A stretch of DNA of 64,000 nucleotides from Octopus vulgaris (lineage: Eukaryota). The notes below the pieces were generated by a model. That model had not been told where the DNA came from. It did not search any database and saw only the letters and a program-made list of their open reading frames with translations. The stretch lies in assembly GCA_951406725.2 (NCBI GenBank), contig OX597814.1:169756001-169820000 (forward strand), read 5' to 3'. The translations under genes and the position numbers were made by a program. Positions within the stretch are counted from its first letter, which is position 1, and the number at the start of each line of letters is the position of its first letter. Positions 3,949 through 59,550 of the stretch are shown piece by piece.

Positions 3949-5897
3949 TGCTTTCAGAAAGCATTAATGAGCACCTTGACAACTAGAATTTAGTACCAGA
4001 AGAGCAGAAGTGTTGCAGAAGGCAAGGAATACATGATCTGTTATATATAGACAAAGCAATTCTAAATGAAGTAAAAGCTAGTAAGAAAATTTAACAAGAG
4101 CATAGATAGATCATAGGAAGCCTATGACATGATCCCACACTCATGGATAAGTGAATGTCTGAGTATATTCAGTATATCAGATAACATAAGAGAATTAATT
4201 AGCTTTAGCATGAAGAAATGGAAAATAGATCTATACTCAGGTGACACACTCTTATGGAAAGTTAATATCAAAAGAGGAATTTTCCAGGGGAACTCGTTGT
4301 ACCCTTTAATATTTGTTCTATGTTTGATCCCTCTCAGTTTAGTATTAAGGAAGGTAAAGGCAGAGTATTAGTTCAGAAATAGTAATGGAAAAATTAACCT
4401 TTTGCTCTACATGGATGATCTGAAGCTTTTTAGTAAGAATGAAAAAGAGATAGATTCCTTAATACAGACTGTAAGACTCTTCATCAAAGATATAGGTATG
4501 GAGTTTGGCATAGATAAGTGTGCAATATTAGTCATGAGAAAGGGACAGGTAGTCAACAGTGAAGGCATCCAATTACCTGATGGCCAGATATTAAAATCAT
4601 TGAAAGGAGGAGAGAGTTATAAGTATCTAAGAGTATTAGAATCTGAGAGAGTACTAACTACAGAAATGAAGACGAAAATTGAGGAGTACATCAAAAGGGT
4701 GAGGAAGCTAATGAAGTCAAAGCTAAATGGTTCGAATCTAGTGAAGGCTCTAAATAGTTGGGCAGTATCATTACTTAGATACTCAGCAGCTTTTATAGAC
4801 TGGACAAAAACTGAATTAGCAAAGCTAGACAGAAGAACTAGGAAGGAATTTGATATGAATGGAGGACTCCATCCAAGGACAGGAGTAACAAGATTATACC
4901 TACCTAGAAAGGAAGGTGGAAGAGGGTTAATTTCAGTGGGAGACTGTGTGGAGTTAGCTAGAGAAGATATAGGCTCCTATGTAGGTAATAGTGAAGAAAG
5001 TTTATTAAAAGCTGCTTGAGTCACAGCAACACATAGGGAAATCAAAACACCAAACGAACTTAAAAACCAGAAAAAAGAACAGAAATTATCTGACTGGCAG
5101 AGGGAGACGTTGCATCAGCAAACAGCAGTAGTGAGATATGGTTATGGCTACAGAAAGGAAAGATGAAGTGGGAGACAGAAAGTTTGTTAGTAGCTGCACA
5201 AAATCAAGCATTAAGGACTAGTTGGATAAAAGCCAAAATAGACAAAAACCAAGTAGATTCCCACTGTAGATTATGCAAATCAAAAGAGGAAAGTGTTACT
5301 CATATAGTAAGTGAATATAGCATGCTGGCACAGAAAGAATACAAAAGACACAACAATCTAGAGAGAGAAATCCACTGGGAGCTTTGTAGAAAGCTAGGAC
5401 TTGAATGTACTGATAAATGGTATGAACATAAACCTAGTAAAGTACTAGAAAGTAAGAAGTAGAAGATGTTGTGGGACTTTAAGATTCAGACTGACAGAGT
5501 AAGAGAAGCTAGAAGGCCTGATTTGATAGTAGTAGATAAAGAGAGTAGAAAGTGCCAAATAATTGACTTTACAGTCCCAAATGATGAAAAAATTAATATG
5601 AGAAGCATAGAAAAAATAGCAAAGTACCAGGACCTAGCTATCGAATTACAGAGACTATGGAAAGTGTGAGTAAAATGTATCCCAGAAGTTATAGGTGCAT
5701 TGGAAACTATCCCTAAAGATCTGAACAGATGGATAGGGGAAATAGGCATAAAACCCAGTTTAGTACAGCTGCAAAAAACAGTGTTATTAGGGACAGCTAG
5801 GATACTTAGGAGGGTTCTTGGCATCTAAGGTTATTTGTTGTAGCCTGATAATAGGATCCTTTTCTTTTCCGAAAGTCTAATCTGTTGAGTGTATAGG
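3948..5897 (+). pseudogene. R4/Dong-clade non-LTR retrotransposon, 5'-truncated: RT plus CCHC finger plus restriction-like endonuclease, disrupted
   Basis: GIFQGNSLYP, LYMDDLKLF, GMEFGIDKC, CRLC..ESVTHIVS, LWDF..RRPDLIVVDK..IIDF..KY.DL, GTARILRRVL*; several stops; (TAA)/(TAG)n tracts on both sides. Confidence 0.92.
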
Positions 5898-10943: not shown

Positions 10944-11731
10944 GGTGCAGGAGTGGCTGTGTGCTAAGTAGCTTGCTAACCAACCACACAGATCCCGGTT
11001 CAGTCCCACTGCGTGGCATCTTGGGCAAGTGTCTTCTGCTATAGCCTCGGGCCGACCAAAGCCTTGTGAGTGGATTTGGTAGATGGAAACTGAAAGAAGC
11101 CTGTCGTTGCCAGCCTCGTCTGGCACCTGTGTCGGTGGCACATAAAAAACACCATCTGAGCGTGGCCGTCTGCCAGCCTCGTCTGGCACCTGTGTCGGTG
11201 GCACATAAAAAACACCATCCAAGCGTGGCCGTCTGCCAGCCTCGTCTGGCACCTGTGTCGGTGGCACATAAAAAACACCATCTGAGCGTGGCCGTTCGCC
11301 AGCCTTGTCTGGCACCTGTGTCGGTGGCACATAAAATCACCCACTACACTCTCGGAGTGGTTGGCGTTAGGAAGGGCATCCAGCTGTAGAAACACTGCCA
11401 GATCTGACTGGCCTGGTGCAGACTTCGGGCTCCCCAGACCCCAGTTGAACCGTCCAACCCATGCTAGCATGGAAAGCGGACGTTAAACGATGATGATGAT
11501 ATATATATGTGTGTGTGTGTGTGTTTGTGTGTCTGTGTTTGTCCCCCTAGCATTGCTTGACAACCGATGCTGGTGTGTTTATGTCCCCGTCACTTAGCGG
11601 TTCGGCAAAAAGAGACCGATAGAATAAGTACTGGGCTTACAAAGAATAAGTCCTGGGGTCGAGTTGCTCGATTAAAGGTGGTGCTCCAGCATGGCCGCAG
11701 TGAAATGACTGAAACAAGTAAAAGAGTAAAG
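10944..11731 (+). mobile_element. CORE-type tRNA SINE with a nested RTE 3' end (11107-11500, ~4 VNTR units)
   Basis: Head ggtgcaggagtggctgtgtg..ggttcagtccc, CORE-like cttgggcaagtgtcttct, tail gactgaaacaagtaaaagag; RTE sits at the internal TA tract. Confidence 0.85.
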
Positions 11732-12482: not shown

Positions 12483-13290
12483 CATGGCTGTGAGGTCGAA
12501 AAGCTTGCTTTGCAATCATATGGTTTCAGGATCAGTACCACTGCATGGCACCCTGGGCAAGTGTCTTTTACTATAGCCCCAGGCCTACACATGCATTCTG
12601 AGTGAATTTGGTAAAGGCCTCCATGCCGATGGCACGTAAAAATCACCATTCAAGTGTGATCATTACCTGCGTTGCCTTACTGGCACTTGTGCTGGAGACA
12701 CATGAAAAAACATTCAAGCAAGGCCGTTGCCAGTGCCGCTAGACTGGCTCCTGTGCAGGAGACACATAAAAAGCACCACCAAGCGTGGCCGTTGCCAGTA
12801 CTGCCTGACTGGCCCTCATGTCAGTAGTACGTAAAAGCACCCACTACACTCTCGGAGTGGTTGGCGTTAGGAAGGGCATCCAGTTGTAGAAACTCTGCCA
12901 GATCAGATTGGAGTCTGGTGCAGCCACCTGGTTCGCCAGACCTCAGTCAAATCGTCCAACCCATGCCAGCATGGAAAGCAGACGTTAAACAATGATGATG
13001 AAACTGTGTGAAAGCCTGTTGTATATATATGTTGGTGTGTGGGGGGGGGTGCATATGTGTATGCATATGTACATGTATCTTTGTGTTTATGTTTGTCCCT
13101 CATCATCACTTGATGACTGGTGTTGGTTTGTTTATATTCCTGTAACTTAACGATTTGGTAAAAGAAGCCAATAGAATAATTACCAGACTTAGAATAAGTA
13201 CTGGGGTTAATATGTTCCACTAAATTCTTCATGACAGTACCCCAGCATGGCTGCAGTCCAATGACTGAAACCGGTAAAAGATAAGAGATA
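12483..13290 (+). mobile_element. Older CORE-type SINE with a nested RTE 3' end (~12615-13000)
   Basis: Same head and tail motifs, split by an RTE VNTR and (GAT)n tail. Confidence 0.8.
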
Positions 13291-17856: not shown

Positions 17857-17880
17857 TATATATATATCTATATCTATATC

Positions 17881-18117
17881 ATCATCCTCATCATCGTTGT
17901 TTAACGTCCGTTTTCCATGCTAGCATAGGTTGGACGGTTCAACCGGGGCCTGGAAGCCATGGAGACTGTCCCAGGCTCTAGTCTGATTTCGCAGTATTTC
18001 TACAGCTAGATGCCCTTCGTAATGCCAACCACTCCGTGGGTGTAGTGGGTGTTTTTTAGGTGCAACCGGCACAGGGGCCAGAGCAGGCTGGCATATGGCC
18101 ACGATTGGTTGGTGCAG
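17881..18117 (-). mobile_element. RTE 3' end
   Basis: (CAT)n..tttaacgtccgttttccatgctagc terminus. Confidence 0.85.
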
Positions 18118-18332
18118 GCCGTCCTGCGAGCCATATATATATATATAGATTCAGATGAATAAAATTATACTAATGTGTCCATCTGTTTTCATTTAACTAA
18201 ATTCTCTCTTTATGCAGCTGAGGATTGCTCTGCATTTAAATTGATTTAATGATTGTATTTTTCAATTAAATGGAGTTGCTTGAAACGATCATACTGCATT
18301 ACCTCTGGATATCCTTGTTGCTTATTTTGTCG

Positions 18333-18531
18333 CCTGGCACCTGTGCTGGTGGCACGTTACAAGCACCCACTACACTCACGGAGTGATTGGGGTTAGGAAG
18401 GGCATCCAGCTGTAGAAACACTGCCAGATCAGACTGGAGCCTGGTGCAGCCTCCTGGCTTCCCAGACCCCCTCAAACTGTCCAACCCATGCTAGCATGGA
18501 CGTTAAACGATGATGAGGATGATGATGATGA
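18333..18531 (+). mobile_element. RTE 3' end, tail-to-tail with the next copy
   Basis: ccaacccatgctagcatggacgttaaac-(GAT)n. Confidence 0.85.
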
Positions 18532-18555
18532 TACATACATGTACATATATATATA

Positions 18556-19525
18556 TCATCATCATCATCATCATCATCATTTAGTGTCCACTTTCCATGC
18601 TGAAATGGGTTGGACGGTTCAACTGGGGTCTGTGAAGCCAGGAGGCTGCATCAGGCCCAGTCTGATCTGGCAGTGTTTCTACGGCTGGATGCCCTTCCTA
18701 ATGCCAACAACTCCGTGAGTGTAGTGGGTGCTTTTTACGTGCCACCCGTACAGGTGCCAGACGGAGCTGGCAAACGGCCTCGGACAGATGGTACTTTTTA
18801 CGTGCCACCGGCACGGGGGCCAGGCGAGGCTGGCAACGGCCACGATCGGATGGTGCTTTTTACGTGCCACCGGCATGGAGGCCAGGCAAGGCTGGCAATG
18901 GCCACGAACGGATGGTGCTTTTTACGTGTCACCGGCACGGAGGCCAGTCGGGGCGGTGCTGGCAACGGCCACGATCGGATGGTTCACTTACTTGTCACCG
19001 GCACTGGTATCACAGCCGCAATTTCCATTGATGTTGATCGATTTCGATTCTGCTTTCTGATATCTGATTTGATTTGGTTTGATTTGATTTTTTTGATTTT
19101 CACTTGCCACAACGGGTCTTCACAAGTGGAGTTTTGTGTCCCAAGAAGGAAAGGTATGTATAAGTCAACTGGCTACATACCAGGTAGAGGCCACGGGTTA
19201 TGGTCTCACTAGTCTTGCTGGGTCTTCTCATGCATAGCATACTTCCATAGGTCTCGGTCTCTAGTCATTTCCTTGGTGAGACCTAAAGTTTGAAGGTCGT
19301 GCTTCACCACCTCATCCCAGGTTTTCCTGGGTCTACCTTTTCCACAGGTTCCCTCAACTGCTAGAGTGTGGCACTTTTGCACACAACTATCTTCAGCCAT
19401 TCTCGTCACATGACCATACCAGCGCAAACGTCTTTCTTGTACACCACAACTGATGCTTCTTAGGTCCAACTTTTCTCTCAAGGTACTTACACTCTGTCGA
19501 TTATGAACACTGACATTACACATCC
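18556..19525 (-). mobile_element. RTE-clade LINE, 5'-truncated: ORF2 C-terminus (19209-19525), 3'UTR with VNTR and (GAT)n tail
   Basis: [33 protein letters not shown] is a classic RTE C-terminus and runs straight into the abundant GAT-tailed repeat. Confidence 0.92.
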
Positions 19526-19602
<77 letters not shown>

Positions 19603-19675
19603 GATATAGCTATATATATGAATAGATACATATATACATATATATGTGTGTGTATATATACATATATATATATAT

Positions 19676-19940
19676 CATCATCATCATCATCATCATCATC
19701 GTTTAACGTCCGCTTTCCGCGCTAGCACGGGTTGGACGGTTTGACCGGGTCTGGGAAGCCAGGGGCCGCACCAGGCTCCAGTCTGAATCTGGCAGAGTTT
19801 CTACGGCTGGATGCCCTTCCTAACGCCAACCACTCCGTGAGTGGATTGGGTGCTTTTTACGTGCCACCTGCACAGGGGCCGGAGGGTCCGGCATCGTCAC
19901 GATCGGTTCGAGCATTTTAACGTGTCAGCGGCACGGGGGC
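19676..19940 (-). mobile_element. RTE 3' end (ccgcgctagcac variant) forming the 3' module of a putative composite element
   Basis: (CAT)n-cgtttaacgtccgctttccgcgctagcacggg; its 5' side joins unique DNA rather than (TA)n. Confidence 0.85.
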
Positions 19941-20657
19941 AACGAGGTCCGGGGTACTTTGGGGATCCAGGGTACTTTGGGGATCCGGGGTACTTAGAAT
20001 GAGTAGGGGGTATGTGGAATTGCTGCAGAAAGCAGCCCGGGTCTTTGTAGTCACAGCATTTATCGTCACTGAGTAAGGAAGGGTTGGTGTAGGTTCCTAA
20101 GAAATAAAGACATTCGTTATCGTCACTGAGTAACGTTATTAGGTAGAGGAAAGAATACAGATATTCTAGAGTTGAGTTGGGGAGGGGGGTCCAGTTGGGG
20201 TGGGTAATATAGGGAAGCAACCAGTGGGGAAGGTTGGGGTAAGGAGGAACGATGGCAGGAAGGGTTGGTGTAGGTTCCTAAGAAATAAAAACGTAGGATA
20301 TTACGAGGCGGGAGGGTGCTAAAGGGGGATAGTCGGAATGAAGCAGTGTCAGGAGGAAGCGTAAGATCGGTGGGCAGTTGATGAGCTATGGCGCTAGCAG
20401 CTTGTCTTTTCACAGTGAAAGCATATGAGGAGAAGGGGTAGTGGGGGGAGGAGGAGGGAGTAGGGCGTACCCGGTGTAGATGAGTAAGGCGTATCCGGTG
20501 TAGATGGTGAGGACAGGGTATACTGGTATTGGTGGTGGGGGGTGAGGAACAGTGTTCACCAGTATTGGTGGTGTTGGCGGTGAGAACAGTGTTCACCGGT
20601 ATTGGTGGTGGGGGTGAGAACAGTGTTCATCGGTGGTGGGGGTGGGGGGGCGGGCGC

Positions 20658-23600
20658 ACCGCCAATGGCTGAAAGATGGAAAGAGAAGGGAAGAGATGGG
20701 ATTACGGCTTGAGGTAGCCTAGCCTAAGGTTAAATTTTGTAGAGAGAGAGATAGAAAGATAAATCAAGTTATGGCGAAGGCTTGAAAGTAGCCTTAAAAG
20801 GTTAAATTTTCGTAACAATGTATGAATAAACGTAGTAACAACGAATAGAAATATTAAGATAAATTTTTAAAGAACTTGCTGCGGACATCGGTCGGGAGTT
20901 GAAATTGAAGAAGTAAGTTAGTTGAATTGGGAATTTAAATTGTAGAATCGTAATGGTAAGAGGAGGAAAAAAGACCGCCAAATGGCTGAAAGATGGAAAG
21001 AGATGGGAAGAGATGGGATTACGGCTTGAGGTAGCCTAGCCTAAGGTTAAATTTTGTAGAGAGAGAGATAGAAAGATAAATCAAGTTATGGCGAAGGCTT
21101 GAAAGTAGCCTTAAAAGGTTAAATTTTCGTAACAATGTATGAATAAACGTAGTAACAACGAATAGAAATATTAAGATAAATTTTTAAAGAACTTGCTGCG
21201 GACATCGGTCGGGAGTTGAAATTGAAGAAGTAAGTTAGTTGAATTGGGAATTTAAATTGTAGAATCGTAATGGTAAGAGGAGGAAAAAAGACCGCCAAAT
21301 GGCTGAAAGATGGAAAGAGATGGGAAGAGATGGGATTACGGCTTGAGGTAGCCTAGCCTAAGGTTAAATTTTGTAGAGAGAGAGATAGAAAGATAAATCA
21401 AGTTATGGCGAAGGCTTGAAAGTAGCCTTAAAAGGTTAAATTTTCGTAACAATGTATGAATAAACGTAGTAACAACGAATAGAAATATTAAGATAAATTT
21501 TTAAAGAACTTGCTGCGGACATCGGTCGGGAGTTGAAATTGAAGAAGTAAGTTAGTTGAATTGGGAATTTAAATTGTAGAATCGTAATGGTAAGAGGAGG
21601 AAAAAAGACCGCCAAATGGCTGAAAGATGGAAAGAGATGGGAAGAGATGGGATTACGGCTTGAGGTAGCCTAGCCTAAGGTTAAATTTTGTAGAGAGAGA
21701 GATAGAAAGATAAATCAAGTTATGGCGAAGGCTTGAAAGTAGCCTTAAAAGGTTAAATTTTCGTAACAATGTATGAATAAACGTAGTAACAACGAATAGA
21801 AATATTAAGATAAATTTTTAAAGAACTTGCTGCGGACATCGGTCGGGAGTTGAAATTGAAGAAGTAAGTTAGTTGAATTGGGAATTTAAATTGTAGAATC
21901 GTAATGGTAAGAGGAGGAAAAAAGACCGCCAAATGGCTGAAAGATGGAAAGAGATGGGAAGAGATGGGATTACGGCTTGAGGTAGCCTAGCCTAAGGTTA
22001 AATTTTGTAGAGAGAGAGATAGAAAGATAAATCAAGTTATGGCGAAGGCTTGAAAGTAGCCTTAAAAGGTTAAATTTTCGTAACAATGTATGAATAAACG
22101 TAGTAACAACGAATAGAAATATTAAGATAAATTTTTAAAGAACTTGCTGCGGACATCGGTCGGGAGTTGAAATTGAAGAAGTAAGTTAGTTGAATTGGGA
22201 ATTTAAATTGTAGAATCGTAATGGTAAGAGGAGGAAAAAAGACCGCCAAATGGCTGAAAGATGGAAAGAGATGGGAAGAGATGGGATTACGGCTTGAGGT
22301 AGCCTAGCCTAAGGTTAAATTTTGTAGAGAGAGAGATAGAAAGATAAATCAAGTTATGGCGAAGGCTTGAAAGTAGCCTTAAAAGGTTAAATTTTCGTAA
22401 CAATGTATGAATAAACGTAGTAACAACGAATAGAAATATTAAGATAAATTTTTAAAGAACTTGCTGCGGACATCGGTCGGGAGTTGAAATTGAAGAAGTA
22501 AGTTAGTTGAATTGGGAATTTAAATTGTAGAATCGTAATGGTAAGAGGAGGAAAAAAGACCGCCAAATGGCTGAAAGATGGAAAGAGATGGGAAGAGATG
22601 GGATTACGGCTTGAGGTAGCCTAGCCTAAGGTTAAATTTTGTAGAGAGAGAGATAGAAAGATAAATCAAGTTATGGCGAAGGCTTGAAAGTAGCCTTAAA
22701 AGGTTAAATTTTCGTAACAATGTATGAATAAACGTAGTAACAACGAATAGAAATATTAAGATAAATTTTTAAAGAACTTGCTGCGGACATCGGTCGGGAG
22801 TTGAAATTGAAGAAGTAAGTTAGTTGAATTGGGAATTTAAATTGTAGAATCGTAATGGTAAGAGGAGGAAAAAAGACCGCCAAATGGCTGAAAGATGGAA
22901 AGAGATGGGAAGAGATGGGATTACGGCTTGAGGTAGCCTAGCCTAAGGTTAAATTTTGTAGAGAGAGAGATAGAAAGATAAATCAAGTTATGGCGAAGGC
23001 TTGAAAGTAGCCTTAAAAGGTTAAATTTTCGTAACAATGTATGAATAAACGTAGTAACAACGAATAGAAATATTAAGATAAATTTTTAAAGAACTTGCTG
23101 CGGACATCGGTCGGGAGTTGAAATTGAAGAAGTAAGTTAGTTGAATTGGGAATTTAAATTGTAGAATCGTAATGGTAAGAGGAGGAAAAAAGACCGCCAA
23201 ATGGCTGAAAGATGGAAAGAGATGGGAAGAGATGGGATTACGGCTTGAGGTAGCCTAGCCTAAGGTTAAATTTTGTAGAGAGAGAGATAGAAAGATAAAT
23301 CAAGTTATGGCGAAGGCTTGAAAGTAGCCTTAAAAGGTTAAATTTTCGTAACAATGTATGAATAAACGTAGTAACAACGAATAGAAATATTAAGATAAAT
23401 TTTTAAAGAACTTGCTGCGGACATCGGTCGGGAGTTGAAATTGAAGAAGTAAGTTAGTTGAATTGGGAATTTAAATTGTAGAATCGTAATGGTAAGAGGA
23501 GGAAAAAAGACCGCCAAATGGCTGAAAGATGGAAAGAGATGGGAAGAGATGGGATTACGGCTTGAGGTAGCCTAGCCTAAGGTTAAATTTTGTAGAGAGA

Positions 23601-26600
23601 GAGATAGAAAGATAAATCAAGTTATGGCGAAGGCTTGAAAGTAGCCTTAAAAGGTTAAATTTTCGTAACAATGTATGAATAAACGTAGTAACAACGAATA
23701 GAAATATTAAGATAAATTTTTAAAGAACTTGCTGCGGACATCGGTCGGGAGTTGAAATTGAAGAAGTAAGTTAGTTGAATTGGGAATTTAAATTGTAGAA
23801 TCGTAATGGTAAGAGGAGGAAAAAAGACCGCCAAATGGCTGAAAGATGGAAAGAGATGGGAAGAGATGGGATTACGGCTTGAGGTAGCCTAGCCTAAGGT
23901 TAAATTTTGTAGAGAGAGAGATAGAAAGATAAATCAAGTTATGGCGAAGGCTTGAAAGTAGCCTTAAAAGGTTAAATTTTCGTAACAATGTATGAATAAA
24001 CGTAGTAACAACGAATAGAAATATTAAGATAAATTTTTAAAGAACTTGCTGCGGACATCGGTCGGGAGTTGAAATTGAAGAAGTAAGTTAGTTGAATTGG
24101 GAATTTAAATTGTAGAATCGTAATGGTAAGAGGAGGAAAAAAGACCGCCAAATGGCTGAAAGATGGAAAGAGATGGGAAGAGATGGGATTACGGCTTGAG
24201 GTAGCCTAGCCTAAGGTTAAATTTTGTAGAGAGAGAGATAGAAAGATAAATCAAGTTATGGCGAAGGCTTGAAAGTAGCCTTAAAAGGTTAAATTTTCGT
24301 AACAATGTATGAATAAACGTAGTAACAACGAATAGAAATATTAAGATAAATTTTTAAAGAACTTGCTGCGGACATCGGTCGGGAGTTGAAATTGAAGAAG
24401 TAAGTTAGTTGAATTGGGAATTTAAATTGTAGAATCGTAATGGTAAGAGGAGGAAAAAAGACCGCCAAATGGCTGAAAGATGGAAAGAGATGGGAAGAGA
24501 TGGGATTACGGCTTGAGGTAGCCTAGCCTAAGGTTAAATTTTGTAGAGAGAGAGATAGAAAGATAAATCAAGTTATGGCGAAGGCTTGAAAGTAGCCTTA
24601 AAAGGTTAAATTTTCGTAACAATGTATGAATAAACGTAGTAACAACGAATAGAAATATTAAGATAAATTTTTAAAGAACTTGCTGCGGACATCGGTCGGG
24701 AGTTGAAATTGAAGAAGTAAGTTAGTTGAATTGGGAATTTAAATTGTAGAATCGTAATGGTAAGAGGAGGAAAAAAGACCGCCAAATGGCTGAAAGATGG
24801 AAAGAGATGGGAAGAGATGGGATTACGGCTTGAGGTAGCCTAGCCTAAGGTTAAATTTTGTAGAGAGAGAGATAGAAAGATAAATCAAGTTATGGCGAAG
24901 GCTTGAAAGTAGCCTTAAAAGGTTAAATTTTCGTAACAATGTATGAATAAACGTAGTAACAACGAATAGAAATATTAAGATAAATTTTTAAAGAACTTGC
25001 TGCGGACATCGGTCGGGAGTTGAAATTGAAGAAGTAAGTTAGTTGAATTGGGAATTTAAATTGTAGAATCGTAATGGTAAGAGGAGGAAAAAAGACCGCC
25101 AAATGGCTGAAAGATGGAAAGAGATGGGAAGAGATGGGATTACGGCTTGAGGTAGCCTAGCCTAAGGTTAAATTTTGTAGAGAGAGAGATAGAAAGATAA
25201 ATCAAGTTATGGCGAAGGCTTGAAAGTAGCCTTAAAAGGTTAAATTTTCGTAACAATGTATGAATAAACGTAGTAACAACGAATAGAAATATTAAGATAA
25301 ATTTTTAAAGAACTTGCTGCGGACATCGGTCGGGAGTTGAAATTGAAGAAGTAAGTTAGTTGAATTGGGAATTTAAATTGTAGAATCGTAATGGTAAGAG
25401 GAGGAAAAAAGACCGCCAAATGGCTGAAAGATGGAAAGAGATGGGAAGAGATGGGATTACGGCTTGAGGTAGCCTAGCCTAAGGTTAAATTTTGTAGAGA
25501 GAGAGATAGAAAGATAAATCAAGTTATGGCGAAGGCTTGAAAGTAGCCTTAAAAGGTTAAATTTTCGTAACAATGTATGAATAAACGTAGTAACAACGAA
25601 TAGAAATATTAAGATAAATTTTTAAAGAACTTGCTGCGGACATCGGTCGGGAGTTGAAATTGAAGAAGTAAGTTAGTTGAATTGGGAATTTAAATTGTAG
25701 AATCGTAATGGTAAGAGGAGGAAAAAAGACCGCCAAATGGCTGAAAGATGGAAAGAGATGGGAAGAGATGGGATTACGGCTTGAGGTAGCCTAGCCTAAG
25801 GTTAAATTTTGTAGAGAGAGAGATAGAAAGATAAATCAAGTTATGGCGAAGGCTTGAAAGTAGCCTTAAAAGGTTAAATTTTCGTAACAATGTATGAATA
25901 AACGTAGTAACAACGAATAGAAATATTAAGATAAATTTTTAAAGAACTTGCTGCGGACATCGGTCGGGAGTTGAAATTGAAGAAGTAAGTTAGTTGAATT
26001 GGGAATTTAAATTGTAGAATCGTAATGGTAAGAGGAGGAAAAAAGACCGCCAAATGGCTGAAAGATGGAAAGAGATGGGAAGAGATGGGATTACGGCTTG
26101 AGGTAGCCTAGCCTAAGGTTAAATTTTGTAGAGAGAGAGATAGAAAGATAAATCAAGTTATGGCGAAGGCTTGAAAGTAGCCTTAAAAGGTTAAATTTTC
26201 GTAACAATGTATGAATAAACGTAGTAACAACGAATAGAAATATTAAGATAAATTTTTAAAGAACTTGCTGCGGACATCGGTCGGGAGTTGAAATTGAAGA
26301 AGTAAGTTAGTTGAATTGGGAATTTAAATTGTAGAATCGTAATGGTAAGAGGAGGAAAAAAGACCGCCAAATGGCTGAAAGATGGAAAGAGATGGGAAGA
26401 GATGGGATTACGGCTTGAGGTAGCCTAGCCTAAGGTTAAATTTTGTAGAGAGAGAGATAGAAAGATAAATCAAGTTATGGCGAAGGCTTGAAAGTAGCCT
26501 TAAAAGGTTAAATTTTCGTAACAATGTATGAATAAACGTAGTAACAACGAATAGAAATATTAAGATAAATTTTTAAAGAACTTGCTGCGGACATCGGTCG

Positions 26601-28159
26601 GGAGTTGAAATTGAAGAAGTAAGTTAGTTGAATTGGGAATTTAAATTGTAGAATCGTAATGGTAAGAGGAGGAAAAAAGACCGCCAAATGGCTGAAAGAT
26701 GGAAAGAGATGGGAAGAGATGGGATTACGGCTTGAGGTAGCCTAGCCTAAGGTTAAATTTTGTAGAGAGAGAGATAGAAAGATAAATCAAGTTATGGCGA
26801 AGGCTTGAAAGTAGCCTTAAAAGGTTAAATTTTCGTAACAATGTATGAATAAACGTAGTAACAACGAATAGAAATATTAAGATAAATTTTTAAAGAACTT
26901 GCTGCGGACATCGGTCGGGAGTTGAAATTGAAGAAGTAAGTTAGTTGAATTGGGAATTTAAATTGTAGAATCGTAATGGTAAGAGGAGGAAAAAAGACCG
27001 CCAAATGGCTGAAAGATGGAAAGAGATGGGAAGAGATGGGATTACGGCTTGAGGTAGCCTAGCCTAAGGTTAAATTTTGTAGAGAGAGAGATAGAAAGAT
27101 AAATCAAGTTATGGCGAAGGCTTGAAAGTAGCCTTAAAAGGTTAAATTTTCGTAACAATGTATGAATAAACGTAGTAACAACGAATAGAAATATTAAGAT
27201 AAATTTTTAAAGAACTTGCTGCGGACATCGGTCGGGAGTTGAAATTGAAGAAGTAAGTTAGTTGAATTGGGAATTTAAATTGTAGAATCGTAATGGTAAG
27301 AGGAGGAAAAAAGACCGCCAAATGGCTGAAAGATGGAAAGAGATGGGAAGAGATGGGATTACGGCTTGAGGTAGCCTAGCCTAAGGTTAAATTTTGTAGA
27401 GAGAGAGATAGAAAGATAAATCAAGTTATGGCGAAGGCTTGAAAGTAGCCTTAAAAGGTTAAATTTTCGTAACAATGTATGAATAAACGTAGTAACAACG
27501 AATAGAAATATTAAGATAAATTTTTAAAGAACTTGCTGCGGACATCGGTCGGGAGTTGAAATTGAAGAAGTAAGTTAGTTGAATTGGGAATTTAAATTGT
27601 AGAATCGTAATGGTAAGAGGAGGAAAAAAAGACCGCCAAATGGCTGAAAGATGGAAAGAGATGGGAAGAGATGGGATTACGGCTTGAGGTAGCCTAGCCT
27701 AAGGTTAAATTTTGTAGAGAGAGAGATAGAAAGATAAATCAAGTTATGGCGAAGGCTTGAAAGTAGCCTTAAAAGGTTAAATTTTCGTAACAATGTATGA
27801 ATAAACGTAGTAACAACGAATAGAAATATTAAGATAAATTTTTAAAGAACTTGCTGCGGACATCGGTCGGGAGTTGAAATTGAAGAAGTAAGTTAGTTGA
27901 ATTGGGAATTTAAATTGTAGAATCGTAATGGTAAGAGGAGGAAAAAAGACCGCCAAATGGCTGAAAGATGGAAAGAGATGGGAAGAGATGGGATTACGGC
28001 TTGAGGTAGCCTAGCCTAAGGTTAAATTTTGTAGAGAGAGAGATAGAAAGATAAATCAAGTTATGGCGAAGGCTTCAAAGTAGCCTTAAAAGGTTAAATT
28101 TTCGTAACAATGTATGAATAAACGTAGTAACAACGAATAGAAATATTAAGATAAATTTT

Positions 28160-28160
<1 letters not shown>
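20658..28160. repeat. Tandem array of a 317-bp monomer, ~23.7 near-identical copies
   Basis: accgccaaatggctg starts at 20658, 20974, 21291, 21608 ... 27314, 27632, 27949; last copy ends after ~212 bp at (TA)n; only a few variants noticed, in terminal copies. Confidence 0.98.
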
Positions 28161-28209
<49 letters not shown>

Positions 28210-31649: not shown

Positions 31650-32175
31650 AAAGATTATTTTCCAACATAAAGTGGCAATCGAATGTTACTGCTACTTAGT
31701 ACCAGGAAACATCATTTCCAGCTGGCTATACAACACACTATCTGTGTCCTTATATTTTCGAACAAGGGAGTTTAGAATCCCCGCTCAACACAAAACAATA
31801 TCTGTGCATCGCGATTTCTGGGTTATTTCTCTTCATCAGCACAGAATAACTGTTCACCTAGAGACTGCGCTGCTAAATTCTTGTTTGAAATATAGTTTTC
31901 AAAGTGACACACAGTCACCGATCTAATAAAATAAAAAAATTTCTATTTGTAAATCTCTCATCGACAGACATTCAGTAACAGTACTCTAGAGTAAAGATTA
32001 TTTGCCAACATAATGTGGCAGTCGAATGTTACTGTTATTTAGCTCCAGGAAACATCGATATTTCCTGAGGCTAAATAACAGTAACATTTTACTGCCACAT
32101 TACGTTGGTAAATAATCTTTACTCTAGAGTGCTGTTACTGAATGTCTGTCGATGAGAGATTTGCAAATAGAAATT
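31645..32175 (-). mobile_element. Penelope-like pseudo-LTR: partial direct repeat (period ~343 bp) plus ~119-bp inverted arm
   Basis: agagtaaagattattt..aggaaacatc at 31645 and ~31988; palindrome centred at 32056/32057; internal hammerhead. Confidence 0.75.
31801..31845 (-). ncRNA. Degenerate minimal hammerhead ribozyme
   Basis: Minus strand tctgtg-CTGATGA-agagaaataaccca-GAA-atcgcgat (palindromic stem III)-g-cacaga; 6-bp stem I intact, cleavage-site base is G, stem II damaged. Confidence 0.6.
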
Positions 32176-32398
32176 ATATAAATATATATATGATTCTCCA
32201 TGATAGATTGCTAGACACTACACATTCTTTATTTTCTCTCCTTGTTTCTTTCTGTGTTCCTTTCTGTTGAAGAGCATAGGCTCGAAATGTTAAAGACTTT
32301 TTCACTTCCTGAATGTTATAGTAATACATCTGTTTGTTGTCTACAGCACCTGACTTCGTCTTTTGTTGTTTTTTGTAAATTCTCACCTATATATATAT

Positions 32399-36085: not shown

Positions 36086-36585
36086 CAGTGTTTCTCAACC
36101 TTTTTACCCATGCATAACCCTTAAAATAAATTACATATCTCAAGGAACCCTTGCACAAAAAATTATATACCATATTTTTCTCCAATTTAAAAAAAATCAT
36201 AGTTCATATGGTAAATATCATATATATACATACGTATATATATACATACGTATATATATATACATATACACACACACACATAATTATATATATATATATA
36301 TATATCATCATCATCATCATCATCGTTTAACGTCCGTTTTCCGCGCTAGCACAGGTTGGACGGTTCGACCGGGGTCTGGGAAGCCAGAAGGCTGCACCAG
36401 GCTCCAGTCTGATCTGGCAGTGTTTCTATGGCTGGATGCCCTTCCTAACGCCAACCACTCCGCGAGTGTAGTGGGTGCTTTTTACGTGCCACCTGCACAG
36501 GTGCCAGAGGGGGTCTGGCATCGGCCACGATCGGTTGGTGCTTTTAACGTGCCACCGGCACGGAAGCCAGGCAAGGCGGTGCTGG

Positions 36586-50941: not shown

Positions 50942-52309
50942 TTCACAGGTATAATAAATAAAACAACAGTAAGCTACAGTTTTTTATATTTTTTTCTAAA
51001 TTTCAAAATTTAAAACAGTTCTTTTTTGTTTAACTTTCCCTGTGAAGAGCACCAATACTTTTTATTTGATCTCCAGTGTGCCATAAAGTTAAAATAAAAA
51101 CAACCTAAGATCAGAAAGCAGTAGCATAACTAATAACAGTTGTATTATAAATTTTAAAACAATAAAGCAGCAATTGAAAAAAAAGTCTTGTATACGGTAT
51201 AATGTTGTTAAGTATTGACTGTAGAAATATTAACATATTTTGGAAGAGCCATATTAAAACTGATAGACAAACTGCTTGTTTCTTACCATAAGGTAAATTT
51301 TCTTTAACCCTTTATTGTTCAGATTAATTTGTCAAATATAATGCTTATCTGTTCACATTAATTTTGATTTATTCAGGTTCAAGTGGGGTATTCACAATAT
51401 TTGCTTGTAACTTTGTTAATTTTCTACATACAGATTTGAAATTTTGTAAATGGGTGCTTATATGCCAGTGGTTTATAGTTACATAATTTTAACTGATCAT
51501 TCTGATTAAATTTGAATTTTATGGACAGGTAAATTTAATTAAAAGGTGTAAAAACAATAACATTATGAATAAACACTAAAATTCATATTCTTAATACATC
51601 TTACCTGTTTAATTTGTTACTAAAATTATCCCAGATGTCAACTGCCAACAATTTTACATTTTACAAGATAAGGTACATTAATTTGAATTAATAAAAATAC
51701 AGGTGTAATCAGTACAAGATTTTATTCTTTCTCTATATTTTATTCAAACATTTTCATTGAAAATAATGTACAAAACTCTTTTACAAGTCAATATAGCATT
51801 AGCTGTGTACTCTTATACAATTTAATGAATTCATTTACGTAACAGAATGCAACTAATAAAAGAAAGCTCATTAACAGGTGAGACAAAGGTGAATACAGGT
51901 GTGTAACATACTGAAAATTAATATGTATTTCTCACTTCCACATATTATTTATAATAAAATGAAAAGGAATATATGACAAAATAATATCTTTTTCTTTTAT
52001 CTTTTATCTTTTACTTGTTTCAGTCATTTGACTGCGGCCATGCTGGAGCACCGCCTTTTAGTCAAGCAAATCGACCCTGGGGCTTATTCTTTGTAAGCCC
52101 AGTACTTATTCTATCGGTCTCTTTTGCCGAACCGCTAAGTGACGGGGACGTAAACACACCAGGGGAACAAACACAGACACACAAACACATACACACACAT
52201 ATATATATATGCATATATATGACAGGCTTCTTTCAGTTTCCATCTACCAAATCCACTCACAAGGCTTTGGTCGGCCCGGGGCTATATATAGTTATAAAAT
52301 AATATAGTT

Positions 52310-53962: not shown

Positions 53963-56026
53963 TCTTTTAAGGGGCCGACAAAGAGGTGACAACACAAACA
54001 CATGTGGGGACATATAACATAAAAATAAATAAATATTCAAAATAAAATTAAAATTTTGATAATATGAATGAATAACGAAAATGAACAAAATGGAAACGCA
54101 CTGCTTGCCCCACCTCAAGCAGCATCATTTACTTCCTTTTATCTTGGGAGTCCTTTTAACATGTTCAAGCTGAGTTTTTCTAACAGTTCCTTATAACCAA
54201 TAGGATCTTTTCAGTTTGAACGGCAGTTTTTTCTAGCGGTGTCATATGAAATTGTCACCCATAATTATGACCCTAGTATCGATCTATTGCATTTCAATCT
54301 GTTTTAGGGTTAGGGTTAGAGTTAGGGTTAGTTAGGGTTAGGGTGAGGGAAGGGTATCTTTTTTCCTTCAGAAATGTAAATAAACCCAATCTGTTTTTTA
54401 AACGAGGGACATATTCATATGGCACAGAATGTTTTCACCTCAATAGACGTCATTGATTGGTTGAAATTGCAGAAACTGAAAAAAAAACAACAACAAATAT
54501 CTTACAAACTATAGAATTTTCTCAATAAAGCCAAGAGAAAAAGATGTTTTATAAACACATTCTACCAGTATACGAAGTTTAAAAGTGTTTAGCTACGTGG
54601 AAATTATTTTAAAAAACTGCCGTTCAAACCGAAAAGATCCAACCAATATTGTCCATTATCCTTTACAAGTCTGCATAAATTTTCCAATATATATAACCTT
54701 CTTTATATTTCTTTACTTTTTCCATTTGTTTCTCCGGAAGTAGCACCCACGTGTGCCACCCTACTGTGTTGGATATCCTTCAACGTTCACAAATTTCCCT
54801 GTTTTCCATTCTGTTAGCTTACAAATCAGTTCCTTGCTCTCCCTATCCATCAAAAAACATACATAACTAGATTCACAGGGAGGGGAGTTTTGTATATTTT
54901 GTTGTGTTTTCTTTCTCTTTTTTTTTTGGACTGTGTAGGATGGAAATGGGTGGGTTCGGTGTCTGTAGGGGGAGGGTGAATCTGAGATGGTGTGGGTGGG
55001 GTGGATATGGCTTGGGGTTCCACTTCACAGAGTTCCTTCTTCCTCTGTTACTGTCCACATTTCTTCCTTTTTCTTTTCTTCCTCCTGTACGGCCTCTTGC
55101 TTATTCTCTAACTCCTATTCAGCTTTTTCCAGATTTTGCTTCTGTAGAGGACAGTGTACTCTAATGTGGCGAAAAAGGCCACCTTTAAAACAACGAGGGG
55201 TTCTGCCCTCTACCCACACTTTCAAAATCATGTCACTGATAGTAACCGTCTCTGCCAATCTTTCCAGGGTTTCTACCTTGGCCTGTACAATGAGGTCTAG
55301 CATTTTTCCTTTCCACATCGACCCTTCCGTTTCGGTGACCTGGAGGATGGCCACTTCCTAGGAGGACAGCTGCCGCAACCCATGTCACACTATATCTGAA
55401 GGGGCACCCTTCACCCTAATCTTGGAAGTTCTTCTACCAAGATAAGTAGGTAGAAGGAACACTTTGTCTTCACTGTTTATGGCTTTCCTCTTTGCTGTTC
55501 CCTTTGTTCTGAATTGTATGACGACTGTCCCGTACCTGCTTCCTCTTGCCAAAAACTCTACATCCCTCCATACCATGCACAACGCATTCTCAATTATTTG
55601 TTCTTCCATGTGTTCGATCTTTTATCCCTCCACCGAGTAGACTTTGTATCCTATGGTTTTCTTAACCATGTCATCCATTACTTTCTGGGGTGGGGACAAC
55701 TTTACATCACCACCCACTCTGCTTGCCATCTTTTGATATCTTTTCATGCTTGACATGTCTATCTCCTTCTTCTTCACTTCTGTCACTTCTGCAAAACTTT
55801 TCCTTTCCAAGCACTTGTCCGTCCTATCCACAGCCATAACGAGTTCCTCCTCCGAAGAAGACAACTCCTAAAACCACTCAGGTCTGAATAACACATCCTT
55901 CCACAAGCCATTGCTATCCCTCATTCATATGGAGAGAAAGCACAATCAAAAGCCGCTGCAGAGCAGCAACAAATTTTCACTTCCAATACTTACAACCAAC
56001 AGCATCAAAAGAGCATGGAGACACAT
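53963..56026 (-). mobile_element. ORF1-only Tx1/L1-like non-LTR retroelement, copy B
   Basis: Disrupted ORF1 from 55864 (LLPTYLGRR..VWVEGRTPRCFKGGLFRHIRVHCP, zinc-knuckle-like); T-rich 3'UTR ending ggcccctt-aaaaga; no RT/EN seen. Confidence 0.75.
54203..54640. mobile_element. Merlin-like MITE carrying internal (TTAGGG)n
   Basis: 30-bp TIRs ggatcttttcagtttgaacggcagtttttt / aaaaaactgccgttcaaaccgaaaagatcc; exact 8-bp TSD aaccaata; telomere-like hexamers at ~54303-54345; superfamily inferred from GG ends and TSD length. Confidence 0.8.
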
Positions 56027-56045: not shown

Positions 56046-57766
56046 TGATTTTTTTTATTACCCACAAGGGGCGAACACAGACGGGACAATACATAACATG
56101 TGGGGACATATAACAAAAAAACATATAATAAAAACCATGTGGGGATATAAAACAATAAAAAAAAATAAAATCAACATAGAGAATATGGGATGATAATGAA
56201 AATGAGAAAAATGCAATGAAACTACCCGGCCCCACCTCTTAGCAATTCCATTTCTGCCTTTTAACACCTCTTTATACCTTGAACCTTCTAAACTATCTTC
56301 ATCATGTTCTTCCAACAATTTTTCATTTGCTAAAAGGTCTGGTAGTTTGTTCCAATCAAGTTCCACTTCCCACCAATCATATCCACTTTCATGCCTTGCC
56401 AACCTCACCTTTGTTCCTCTGTGGTTACCACACATTGGTGCCGCCTCTTAACATTGTCATACCCCTCTGTTTCCACTTCTTTATACTCTTCCCATGTCAT
56501 TACCGCCTTACATAATTCCTCATTTGAATCATCACACATTATTACAATACATTTTTTCTTTTCTGCTTGGCTGGAGGGAGCTTGACGGTTTTTGTGTGTA
56601 CTTGTTTCCTTTTCCTTTTGTTTTTGTGTTGGAGGGGAATGAGTAGGCTTGGTGTCTGCGGGGGGAGTGGATGTATGTAGGGGTGTGTGTCTTGGGGTTT
56701 AGAGTTCGAAACACTTGCGTTCTTTCTCTTTCTTCCAGCGACTTTTTCCCACTTGTTCTCCATTGCTACTATTTCCTCCTCCTTTTTGGTTTCTTCCACT
56801 TTTCTGGAACGCTCCAACCTCTCTTCCTTTTTCTCCTCCATATTCCTTAGTTGCTTCTCCTCTGCTTTTTTGGTCTGTGAAGGGCAGTCCACTCTAATGT
56901 GGTTCATTTAGGCCACATTTAAAGTATCTGGGGACTCTGCTCTCCACCCTGACCATCATTATCACATCATCCATAATTATTGACTCTGTAATATTTTCCA
57001 GAGTCTTGGTTGATCCCTGAACAATCAGATTCAGTGTTTGTCCCTTCCATATCATGCTTTCCTTTTTTGTGGCCTGGAGAACCACCTATGTTGTCCCCAT
57101 TTCCAAGAAGGGCAGCGTCTGCTATCCAGACCACATCAGTCTCTAGCAGAATTCCTTCTATGCTGATTCTTGTTGCTCTTAGTCCTCGGTAAGTGGGCAG
57201 AAGCACCACTTCCTCACTCTTGATGAATGTCGCTGCTTGCTTCCTTGCTGTTGCCACATCCTCTACTACTCCAAACATCAAACCTCTTGCGAGGTACATG
57301 ATATGACTCCATATCAATCTCAGAGCCTTTTCCACCTGGTCCGTAGTCACAATGTCAATTTTTCAATTACTCATGGAAAAGGTTCGGTACTTTATTGTCC
57401 TTTCCTTATGTGTCTCTTGGGGTGGGGGGACAGCTTCACCTCAAAACCATCCCGACTTACTAAATTTTTATACCTTCCAAATTTTCCAATATCCATTTCT
57501 CCTGGTATTTTGCCACGTCAGCAAAATTCCTCTTCTCCTTCTTCAATTGATCATCCATCTTCAGGACTGCCTCCAACAATTCCTCTTCCGACTACGATAT
57601 GTCTGAGAAGCTATAGTCTTCAACACACATTTTTTTACTAAAGCTATCTCTCCTCTCACGAGAAAAGAAAGCGCAAACAAACAAACAAACTGCTGCAAAG
57701 CAGCACAACAAGTTCAAATACTATAGAAAAAAAACACCAGTACAAAAAGCAAAGTATAAAATATAC
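56046..57766 (-). mobile_element. ORF1-only Tx1/L1-like non-LTR retroelement, copy A
   Basis: Disrupted ORF1 homologous to copy B (LLPTYRGLR..VRVESRVPRYFKCG..HIRVDCP); 3' end gccccttgtgggtaat-poly(A). Confidence 0.78.
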
Positions 57767-58995: not shown

Positions 58996-59330
58996 AATCA
59001 TCATCATTGTTCGACCATGGTCGAGACAATGGAATTTACCATGCTACGCCAGACTTCACGGTCCATCATAGCATTACGGAGGTCCTGTTGCTGGATGCCT
59101 GTATCCCTGGAGATTACATCAGGGTAGGAGAGTGTGTGCCCTCTGGTATTGCGAGTAAATGGCTTCCAGAGGAGAAGAGTAGAAATTGCCTCGTTTTCAG
59201 CTCTACAACAATGTCCAGCAAACTGGACTCTCCTACCTTTCACAAGAGATGACACAGGTGGTAGTTCCCCATATATTTGCATTTTGGTTGGATGACGCTT
59301 CCACGAGAGATTTTGAGCTCTCATAAGGAG
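58996..59330 (-). mobile_element. Second RTE-group LINE family, 3' end
   Basis: NLSWKRH..RRVQFAGHCCR..LLLWKP..AMMDREVWR; short (TGA)n tail. Confidence 0.85.
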
Positions 59331-59334
59331 GAAT

Positions 59335-59550
59335 ATTAATGGTTTCAAATTTTTGCACAAGGCCAGCAAATTTCAGGGAGTGGGTAAGTCAACTTCATTG
59401 ACTCCCCCGTGTTCAACTTGTTCTTATTTCATTGACCCCGAAAGGATGAAAATTAAAGTCAACCTTGGCAAAATTTGAACTCAGGATATAAAGGTAAACA
59501 AAATGCTGCTAACCACTTTGCCCAGCATGCTAACAATTCTGCCAGCTTGC
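59335..59550 (-). mobile_element. MetaSINE-type copy (similar at ~50160, 58070, 62695, 63595)
   Basis: Reverse complement of the Meta core and head. Confidence 0.75.

Follow-up and report, generated by a model that had tools for sequence, protein, structure and literature searches.

A satellite array, a linker and an RTE-like tail within one (TA)n-flanked composite of the Octopus vulgaris genome: a candidate non-autonomous retroposon

Tandem monomers at the 5' end of a retroelement, and non-coding elements that end in the tail of a LINE (long interspersed nuclear element), have each been described separately. In the CR1-3_TCa element of Tribolium, 1.2 monomers of the TCAST satellite lie within its 5' untranslated region (UTR), where they have been proposed to serve as a promoter and to be dispersed as a satellite by retrotransposition (PMC3411249); mouse L1 elements carry monomer promoters of which the first is partial (PMC6454616, PMC5381506); short elements with RTE tails include Bov-A, RTESINE, WALLSI and the AviRTE SINEs (short interspersed nuclear elements) (PMC5786205, PMC4844689); and satellites derived from mobile elements have been reviewed (PMC9659126). 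How satellites come to occupy new loci is mostly deduced from ancient, degraded examples, and the carriers shown so far include Helentrons, miniature inverted-repeat transposable elements (MITEs) and long terminal repeat (LTR) elements, the non-LTR case among the sources consulted, CR1-3_TCa, carrying just 1.2 monomers. Here we describe a locus in a 64,000-nucleotide stretch of the Octopus vulgaris genome (GenBank assembly GCA_951406725.2, contig OX597814.1, positions 169,756,001 to 169,820,000 of the forward strand; ‘the window’), in which an 8.5-kb non-coding composite occupies window positions 19676..28160, its element strand being the minus strand. We give a probability of roughly one half to the reading that this composite is one insertion of a non-autonomous retroposon family, copied in trans by an RTE-type LINE, with an array that was probably lengthened and homogenised after insertion or shortly before it.

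Anatomy of the composite and its tail

Read along the minus strand, a (TA)n run (28160..28206) is followed by a 213-bp partial monomer that forms the 5' end of the element (27949..28161), 23 whole monomers of 317 bp (20658..27948), a 712-bp linker (19946..20657), a LINE 3' tail (19701..19950), a (GAT)9 microsatellite that forms the 3' end (19674..19700), and a second (TA)n run (19526..19675), which is the probable insertion target and doubles as the 5' flank of a neighbouring LINE fragment. This anatomy is real, and the order and coordinates set out in a preliminary description of the window hold. The composite stops exactly at (GAT)9 on one side and at a monomer on the other, each end abutting (TA)n, and carries no additional donor flank; an end-to-end comparison found no terminal inverted or direct repeats at those ends (only 7-11 letters matched, as by chance).

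The array as a whole (20658-28161) has a period of 317 and 23.7 copies, and 21 of the 23 whole monomers do not differ from one another. Four differences occur, namely two in copy 1 (on the linker side), one extra A in copy 22, and a single private substitution in the partial monomer, whose last two bases (TA) also fit the flanking (TA)n. Thus three of the four fall in the two end units, which make up 7% of the array (P=0.0013, calculated post hoc), as would be expected if the array had been homogenised in place. The monomer is pyrimidine-rich on the element strand and has a CpG observed/expected ratio of 1.33, against 0.38 in the remainder of the window, where an nhmmer search found no further copy of it.

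A conserved core of about 170 bp and some 1.5 diverged 62-bp units make up the tail, of which the window contains 13 other copies; identity to these is 78-94%, reaching 94% with the one at 36304, and the homology extends to about 19945-19955. A two-helix 3' hairpin (19707..19738, minus strand) had its structure taken from the composite, and across the 14 copies 97% of 138 cells are paired; the composite retains 10 of its 10 pairs, none of 500 shuffles scored as high, and six slid controls reached 21-43%. Outside the composite, the neighbouring 5'-truncated LINE 3' end (18555-19525, minus strand) consists of the C-terminus of an open reading frame (ORF; 19212-19517) and a 3'UTR of about 650 bp with 62-bp repeats, and ends in the same tail, to which that of the composite is 87% identical. 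Its ORF end has seven protein matches, one of them from O. bimaculoides, and is 60% identical over 101 amino acids to a reverse transcriptase (RT) protein, so that the tail is tied to a coding LINE. Among 1,160 hits, the 120 longer relatives listed for that RT protein all carry RVT_1 and have a median length of 1,042 aa, many of them also joining an AP-endonuclease domain, as well as a PHD domain, to the RT in a single polypeptide. A single ORF joining endonuclease and RT is the layout typical of RTE elements. By protein layout, the partner LINE would accordingly be classed as RTE-like, and derivation of the composite’s tail from such a LINE, with its hairpin kept, is the supported interpretation. 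The octopus element RTE-2_OV has been described with the same single-ORF layout, at 1,109 aa (PMC9115989); the one published RTE-2_OV 5' primer that was compared had no match in the window.

The (TA)n flanks are a trait of the tail family, which favours (TA)n. At least two AT units directly follow six of the 13 tails detected by motif (the composite included), compared with 2.4% of 760 background GAT positions, while an alternating TA run of at least eight lies within 40 bp of the 5' end of five of the 13 other copies, compared with 8% of background. The 3' microsatellite of RTE elements has been proposed to guide cleavage or priming (PMC6007223). Apart from the composite, the tail-bearing insertions of the window measure 166-945 bp.

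Four tail-bearing insertions are packed into the 2.1 kb of window 17878-19950, which to judge from its sequence is an insertion hotspot at TA runs; among them is a tail-to-tail pair (18336-18532 on the plus strand and 18555-18820 on the minus strand) with a short TA-rich gap between. Two SINE-like elements on the plus strand (10990-11500 and 12600-13001) share a common head, which we take to be tRNA/CORE-like and which also has matches at 52254 and 61993, followed by 62-65-bp repeats and the same LINE tail; the tail thus already serves other non-autonomous partners. The primer of an Octopus vulgaris long non-coding RNA (PMC9115989) matches the window SINE three times, with 2-3 mismatches, and has no such match in 100 shuffles.

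The linker and the monomer in public sequencing runs

The linker is 41% C on the element strand and is built in part of internal repeats (an 18-bp unit repeated 2.7 times at 19948-19995, a 36-bp duplication at 20076-20111 and 20257-20292, a 24-bp unit present twice, and a 34-bp minisatellite of 4.1 copies at 20458-20648). The idea that it is coding DNA was rejected on the lack of protein matches (its 167-aa frame had none among 1.84 billion representatives, and its 126-aa frame none among 197 candidates) and of Pfam domains, which were absent from the linker and monomer frames alike. None of 127 LINE-like proteins matched the linker or the monomer. A ribozyme or structured RNA, of the retrozyme or ribozyme-satellite kind, was likewise rejected: Rfam returned three chance-level matches (E 0.5-0.8), the monomer contains no hammerhead core motif, and the monomer folded no better than shuffled sequences (z-score 0.71), two further folds giving z-scores of -1.02 and -1.51. 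Among features of RNA polymerase III (Pol III) SINEs, no tRNA, Rfam family or box A or B was detected. The terminal structures of DNA transposons, whether of a Helentron (HINE) or of a MITE, were not found either, the array ending directly in (TA)n, with which a truncated relic of such an element is still compatible.

The preliminary description called the linker ‘unique’. An nhmmer search indeed found no second copy in the window, but the linker is multi-copy in public runs. At least half of 104 sampled words from 19900-20990 are present in 19 of 24 listed runs, representing seven studies and one organism (the share of words in the remainder being 0.06 in run X20 and 0.00 in X21-X24). Metagenome scans gave no match for a linker word and none for a monomer word. 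Four of the 24 runs (X1, X2, X3 and X18), all of them contig sets, were compared with the interval 19665-20985; 32 listed pieces of 70,542 were inspected, contig depth being a measure of neither copy number nor expression, and the richest DNA-type run may stem from the same source as the window. All 30 bins of the interval are covered in each of the four runs. In X2 an exact 103-bp linker contig has a depth of 2,188 and five of the eight listed pieces have depths of 14-40; if the latter represent single loci, the linker would be present in about 10^2 copies.

The join between tail and linker recurs. One listed contig of X18 (19852-20059, depth 61) and one of X3 (19847-20076, depth 63), runs that belong to different studies, cross it with over 31 letters to either side. 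Together with the multiple copies of the linker, this recurring join points to a family rather than a single event. In the two DNA-type runs, X1 and X2, the summed depth of the monomer is at the median 7.7 and 7.5 times that of the linker, a ratio that fits arrays of modest length joined to linkers and not a giant free satellite, although free short arrays are also compatible with it. In two runs guessed to be RNA, which cover all of 19665-20985, the same ratio is 63 and 20, compared with 7.5-7.7 in the DNA-type runs; this is a hint of transcription at most, as contigs reveal neither strand nor start and their cover could stem from DNA or from intronic RNA.

The runs also point to several types of monomer. 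At positions 20914 and 20919 an alternative letter accounts for 50-100% of depth in all four runs, whereas every copy in the array keeps T. Other types are hinted at by shorter wraps (20831 to 20664 and 20957 to 20684) and by a form with a 35-bp deletion, and a loose end at 20959, common to X2, X3 and X18, carries a second YY1-like word; the shared loose end suggests that a longer monomer type may exist at other loci. None of the four runs lists the interior substitution (monomer position 31) at a share of 5% or above, and in X3 the two-A form known from the linker-side copy appears at a loose end. Because of these two observations, the interior monomer type looks to have been derived at this locus or at its donor.

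Insertion, array growth and competing explanations

A sequence of events that would produce this locus can be proposed. The CpG-rich monomers would act as a putative repeated internal promoter, by analogy with mouse L1, giving rise to an RNA that starts within a monomer and ends in the tail. The protein of the RTE partner would then bind the 3' hairpin (as the shared tail and hairpin suggest) and prime reverse transcription where (TA)n has been nicked, perhaps assisted by pairing of the GAT end. The copy would terminate inside a monomer, either at the transcription start or by truncation, joined through the two-base microhomology, and slippage or unequal exchange could subsequently have multiplied a single variant monomer into 23.7 copies while the end units stayed slightly different. 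A short insertion that later grew is favoured over a single 8.5-kb reverse transcript, because the other insertions of the window measure less than 1 kb, because the differences cluster in the end units, and because the interior variant looks locus-derived. The preliminary description had taken the mid-monomer start of the array as a sign of 5' truncation during target-primed reverse transcription; the array does start mid-monomer, but almost any array end falls there once the other end sets the phase, and the observation is not diagnostic.

A number of results weigh against retroposition of the unit, or fall short of what it would lead one to expect. The full composite is seen at one locus only, its dispersal by retrotransposition being what we infer, and a target-site duplication is unreadable inside (TA)n. 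Relative to the tail, the linker shows no enrichment in the RNA-guess runs (linker/tail depth of 0.008 and 0.002, versus 0.022 and 0.006 in the DNA-type runs), so that no dedicated transcript is evident. The monomer's YY1-like word matches the motif in part only, at a distance of about 200 bp from the 5' break, and the two-sided change in the hairpin could also come from CpG decay. With respect to the joins, two listed pieces of X1 reach just 21-30 letters beyond the tail-linker junction, and no listed piece of X2 spans it; by the same 31-letter rule the linker-monomer junction is bridged by none of the 32 listed pieces. Three X1 contigs whose copy of the linker minisatellite lacks 33-36 bp extend 9-12 letters into the monomer, joints as short as these often arising from repeats.

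Four other explanations were weighed against the same evidence. The linker and array might together be the variable 3'UTR of an autonomous RTE subfamily, of which this copy was truncated at its 5' side within the array and has lost its ORF. Such an arrangement has precedents close at hand, in the tandem 62-bp repeats of the neighbouring LINE’s 3'UTR and in the divergence of the window’s tail copies upstream of the core, as well as in plant RTEs that combine variable and conserved 3'UTR parts (10.1101/2022.11.04.512097); moreover, the evidence covers nothing upstream of the array, the 5' end of the family included. The neighbour’s entire 3'UTR, however, is just about 650 bp long, the 127 LINE-like proteins leave both linker and monomer unmatched, the monomer is CpG-rich in the manner of a promoter, and the loose ends upstream of monomers that were listed (442 others falling outside the list) resemble monomer variants, all of which make this explanation unlikely, if the likeliest of the four. 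Less probable again is the insertion of an RTE tail, once, beside a satellite and its flank, after which the joined unit spread at the DNA level by segmental duplication or re-integration of circles. Such spread predicts the recurrence of the junction and the steadiness of the monomer/linker ratio just as well; the several length variants of the monomer in the runs are in keeping with it, as is the length of 8.5 kb, which is nine times that of the longest other insertion in the window. It accounts poorly for a unit that stops exactly at the (GAT)n end without donor flank, that abuts (TA)n at both ends in the manner of ordinary insertions of the tail, and that has no terminal inverted or direct repeats.

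The two remaining explanations concern the array itself. If the donor already had a long array, the entire 8.5 kb could have been reverse-transcribed in one piece: multi-monomer arrays may be usual, given a mean monomer/linker ratio near 7.5, and the near-identity of the monomers is what copying from a homogeneous donor a very short time ago would leave. The other 13 insertions, all below 1 kb, the clustering of differences in the end units and the rarity of the interior variant in the runs all argue the other way, and we rank this explanation lower than spread at the DNA level. Finally, the length of the array, or its join to (TA)n, might be an artefact of assembly or polishing, which we regard as very improbable. 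Consensus polishing could yield 21 identical copies, and joins in (TA)n are error-prone (the comparison with runs spans 19665-20985 and not the junction at 28161); yet the window is without N, the tail-linker join is present in independent runs, and all copies share states at 20914 and 20919 that differ from those of 50-100% of the run monomer depth, which polishing with a pool of reads would not give.

Retroposition in trans followed by growth of the array is the reading that we prefer. The suggestion of the preliminary description that the composite is RTE-mobilised thus stands in part, sustained by the tail-linker join in two independent runs, the steady depth ratios of 7.7 and 7.5 and the RTE-like tail with its hairpin, while later growth of the array is more probable than a single-piece copy of the whole 8.5 kb. 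A bolder version, which we advance tentatively and consider rather doubtful, is that of an active, kilobase-scale, protein-free octopus retroposon that uses a satellite array as its own 5' promoter, each RTE-driven insertion at (TA)n planting a self-expanding, transcription-competent array.

The window holds several other features. A broken fragment of another LINE (4264-5462, plus strand), with an RVT_1 match at E 1e-6 and a weak zf-RVT match, is presumably R4/Dong-like. A long palindrome at 31926-32187 has two 131-bp arms, 89% complementary and without spacer, and is MITE- or foldback-like, and about eight TTAGGG-type units form an interstitial run at 54304-54349. On the minus strand, two open frames of 121 and 131 aa (56545-57362) are charged and ORF1-like and have no Pfam match, the second also being without an Atlas match; a 122-aa frame (59004-59372), again with no Pfam match, resembles by eye the C-terminus of another LINE protein.

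Relation to described elements

No description of this composite family was found in the available parts of the literature, including PMC9115989, PMC8967140 and PMC13282606, the comparison being one of text and not of library sequences. The supplement of PMC13282606 counts 176 RTE and 80 satellite families, and the composite family may sit unnamed in a repeat library. Should its copies turn out to represent a repeat of a 3'UTR, or duplications lying in a cluster, it would be an ordinary item of repeat annotation. If instead it is a young family, in which the number and subtype of monomers vary and the LINE tail is clear, it would allow travel as RNA to be distinguished from growth after arrival, and would add a multi-kilobase, length-variable class of insertions to the genomes of octopuses, for which the activity of RTE elements is a subject of discussion already. 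If the array does act as its own promoter, the family would represent a self-renewing, non-LTR form of satellite seeding, and would offer perhaps a hundred or more polymorphic loci at which to watch satellite birth and concerted evolution.

Among the systems with which the composite can be compared, CR1-3_TCa, a non-LTR element, resembles it in having satellite monomer sequence at its 5' end; it belongs to the CR1 clade and has two ORFs and 1.2 monomers, whereas the composite has an RTE-like tail, no ORF and 23.7 monomers. Mouse L1 provides the closest likeness for the array, with CpG-rich tandem monomers of which the first is partial, a non-repeated spacer next to them, and monomer subtypes across loci. 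It is, however, autonomous, with monomers of about 200 bp, a shown promoter activity and a poly(A) end, while the promoter role of the octopus monomers is putative and the linker, in place of a tether followed by ORFs, runs straight into the tail.

The bipartite RTE derivatives and RTE-tailed SINEs resemble the composite in being non-coding and in ending with an RTE 3' tail and a microsatellite, some of them also having heads of obscure origin; those tabled in the available sources are 200-600 bp long, with a piece of the RTE 5'UTR and often a tRNA or 5S head, whereas the composite is kilobases long and has no tRNA or Pol III box. With the SVA and LAVA elements of apes (PMC4859970) it has in common a non-coding body, a variable tandem part, a pyrimidine-rich 5' repeat and (as proposed here) movement in trans by a LINE. 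SVA measures about 2 kb, is driven by L1 through its poly(A) and carries its variable number of tandem repeats internally; the composite shares none of its parts, from hexamer and Alu-like part to tandem repeats, SINE-R and poly(A), has a 5'-terminal array and a LINE-derived tail, and ends in (GAT)n rather than poly(A), with no AATAAA on the element strand. Finally, the Cg_HINE Helentrons of oyster (PMC7492417) and the arrays of Lathyrus LTR retrotransposons (PMC7004042) are likewise element-borne short arrays that sometimes expand in place into satellites, although their carriers are rolling-circle and LTR elements and that of the composite has a non-LTR tail. The octopus composite thus works like an SVA-type or RTE-tailed non-autonomous element equipped with mouse-L1-like monomers, but is a member of none of these groups.

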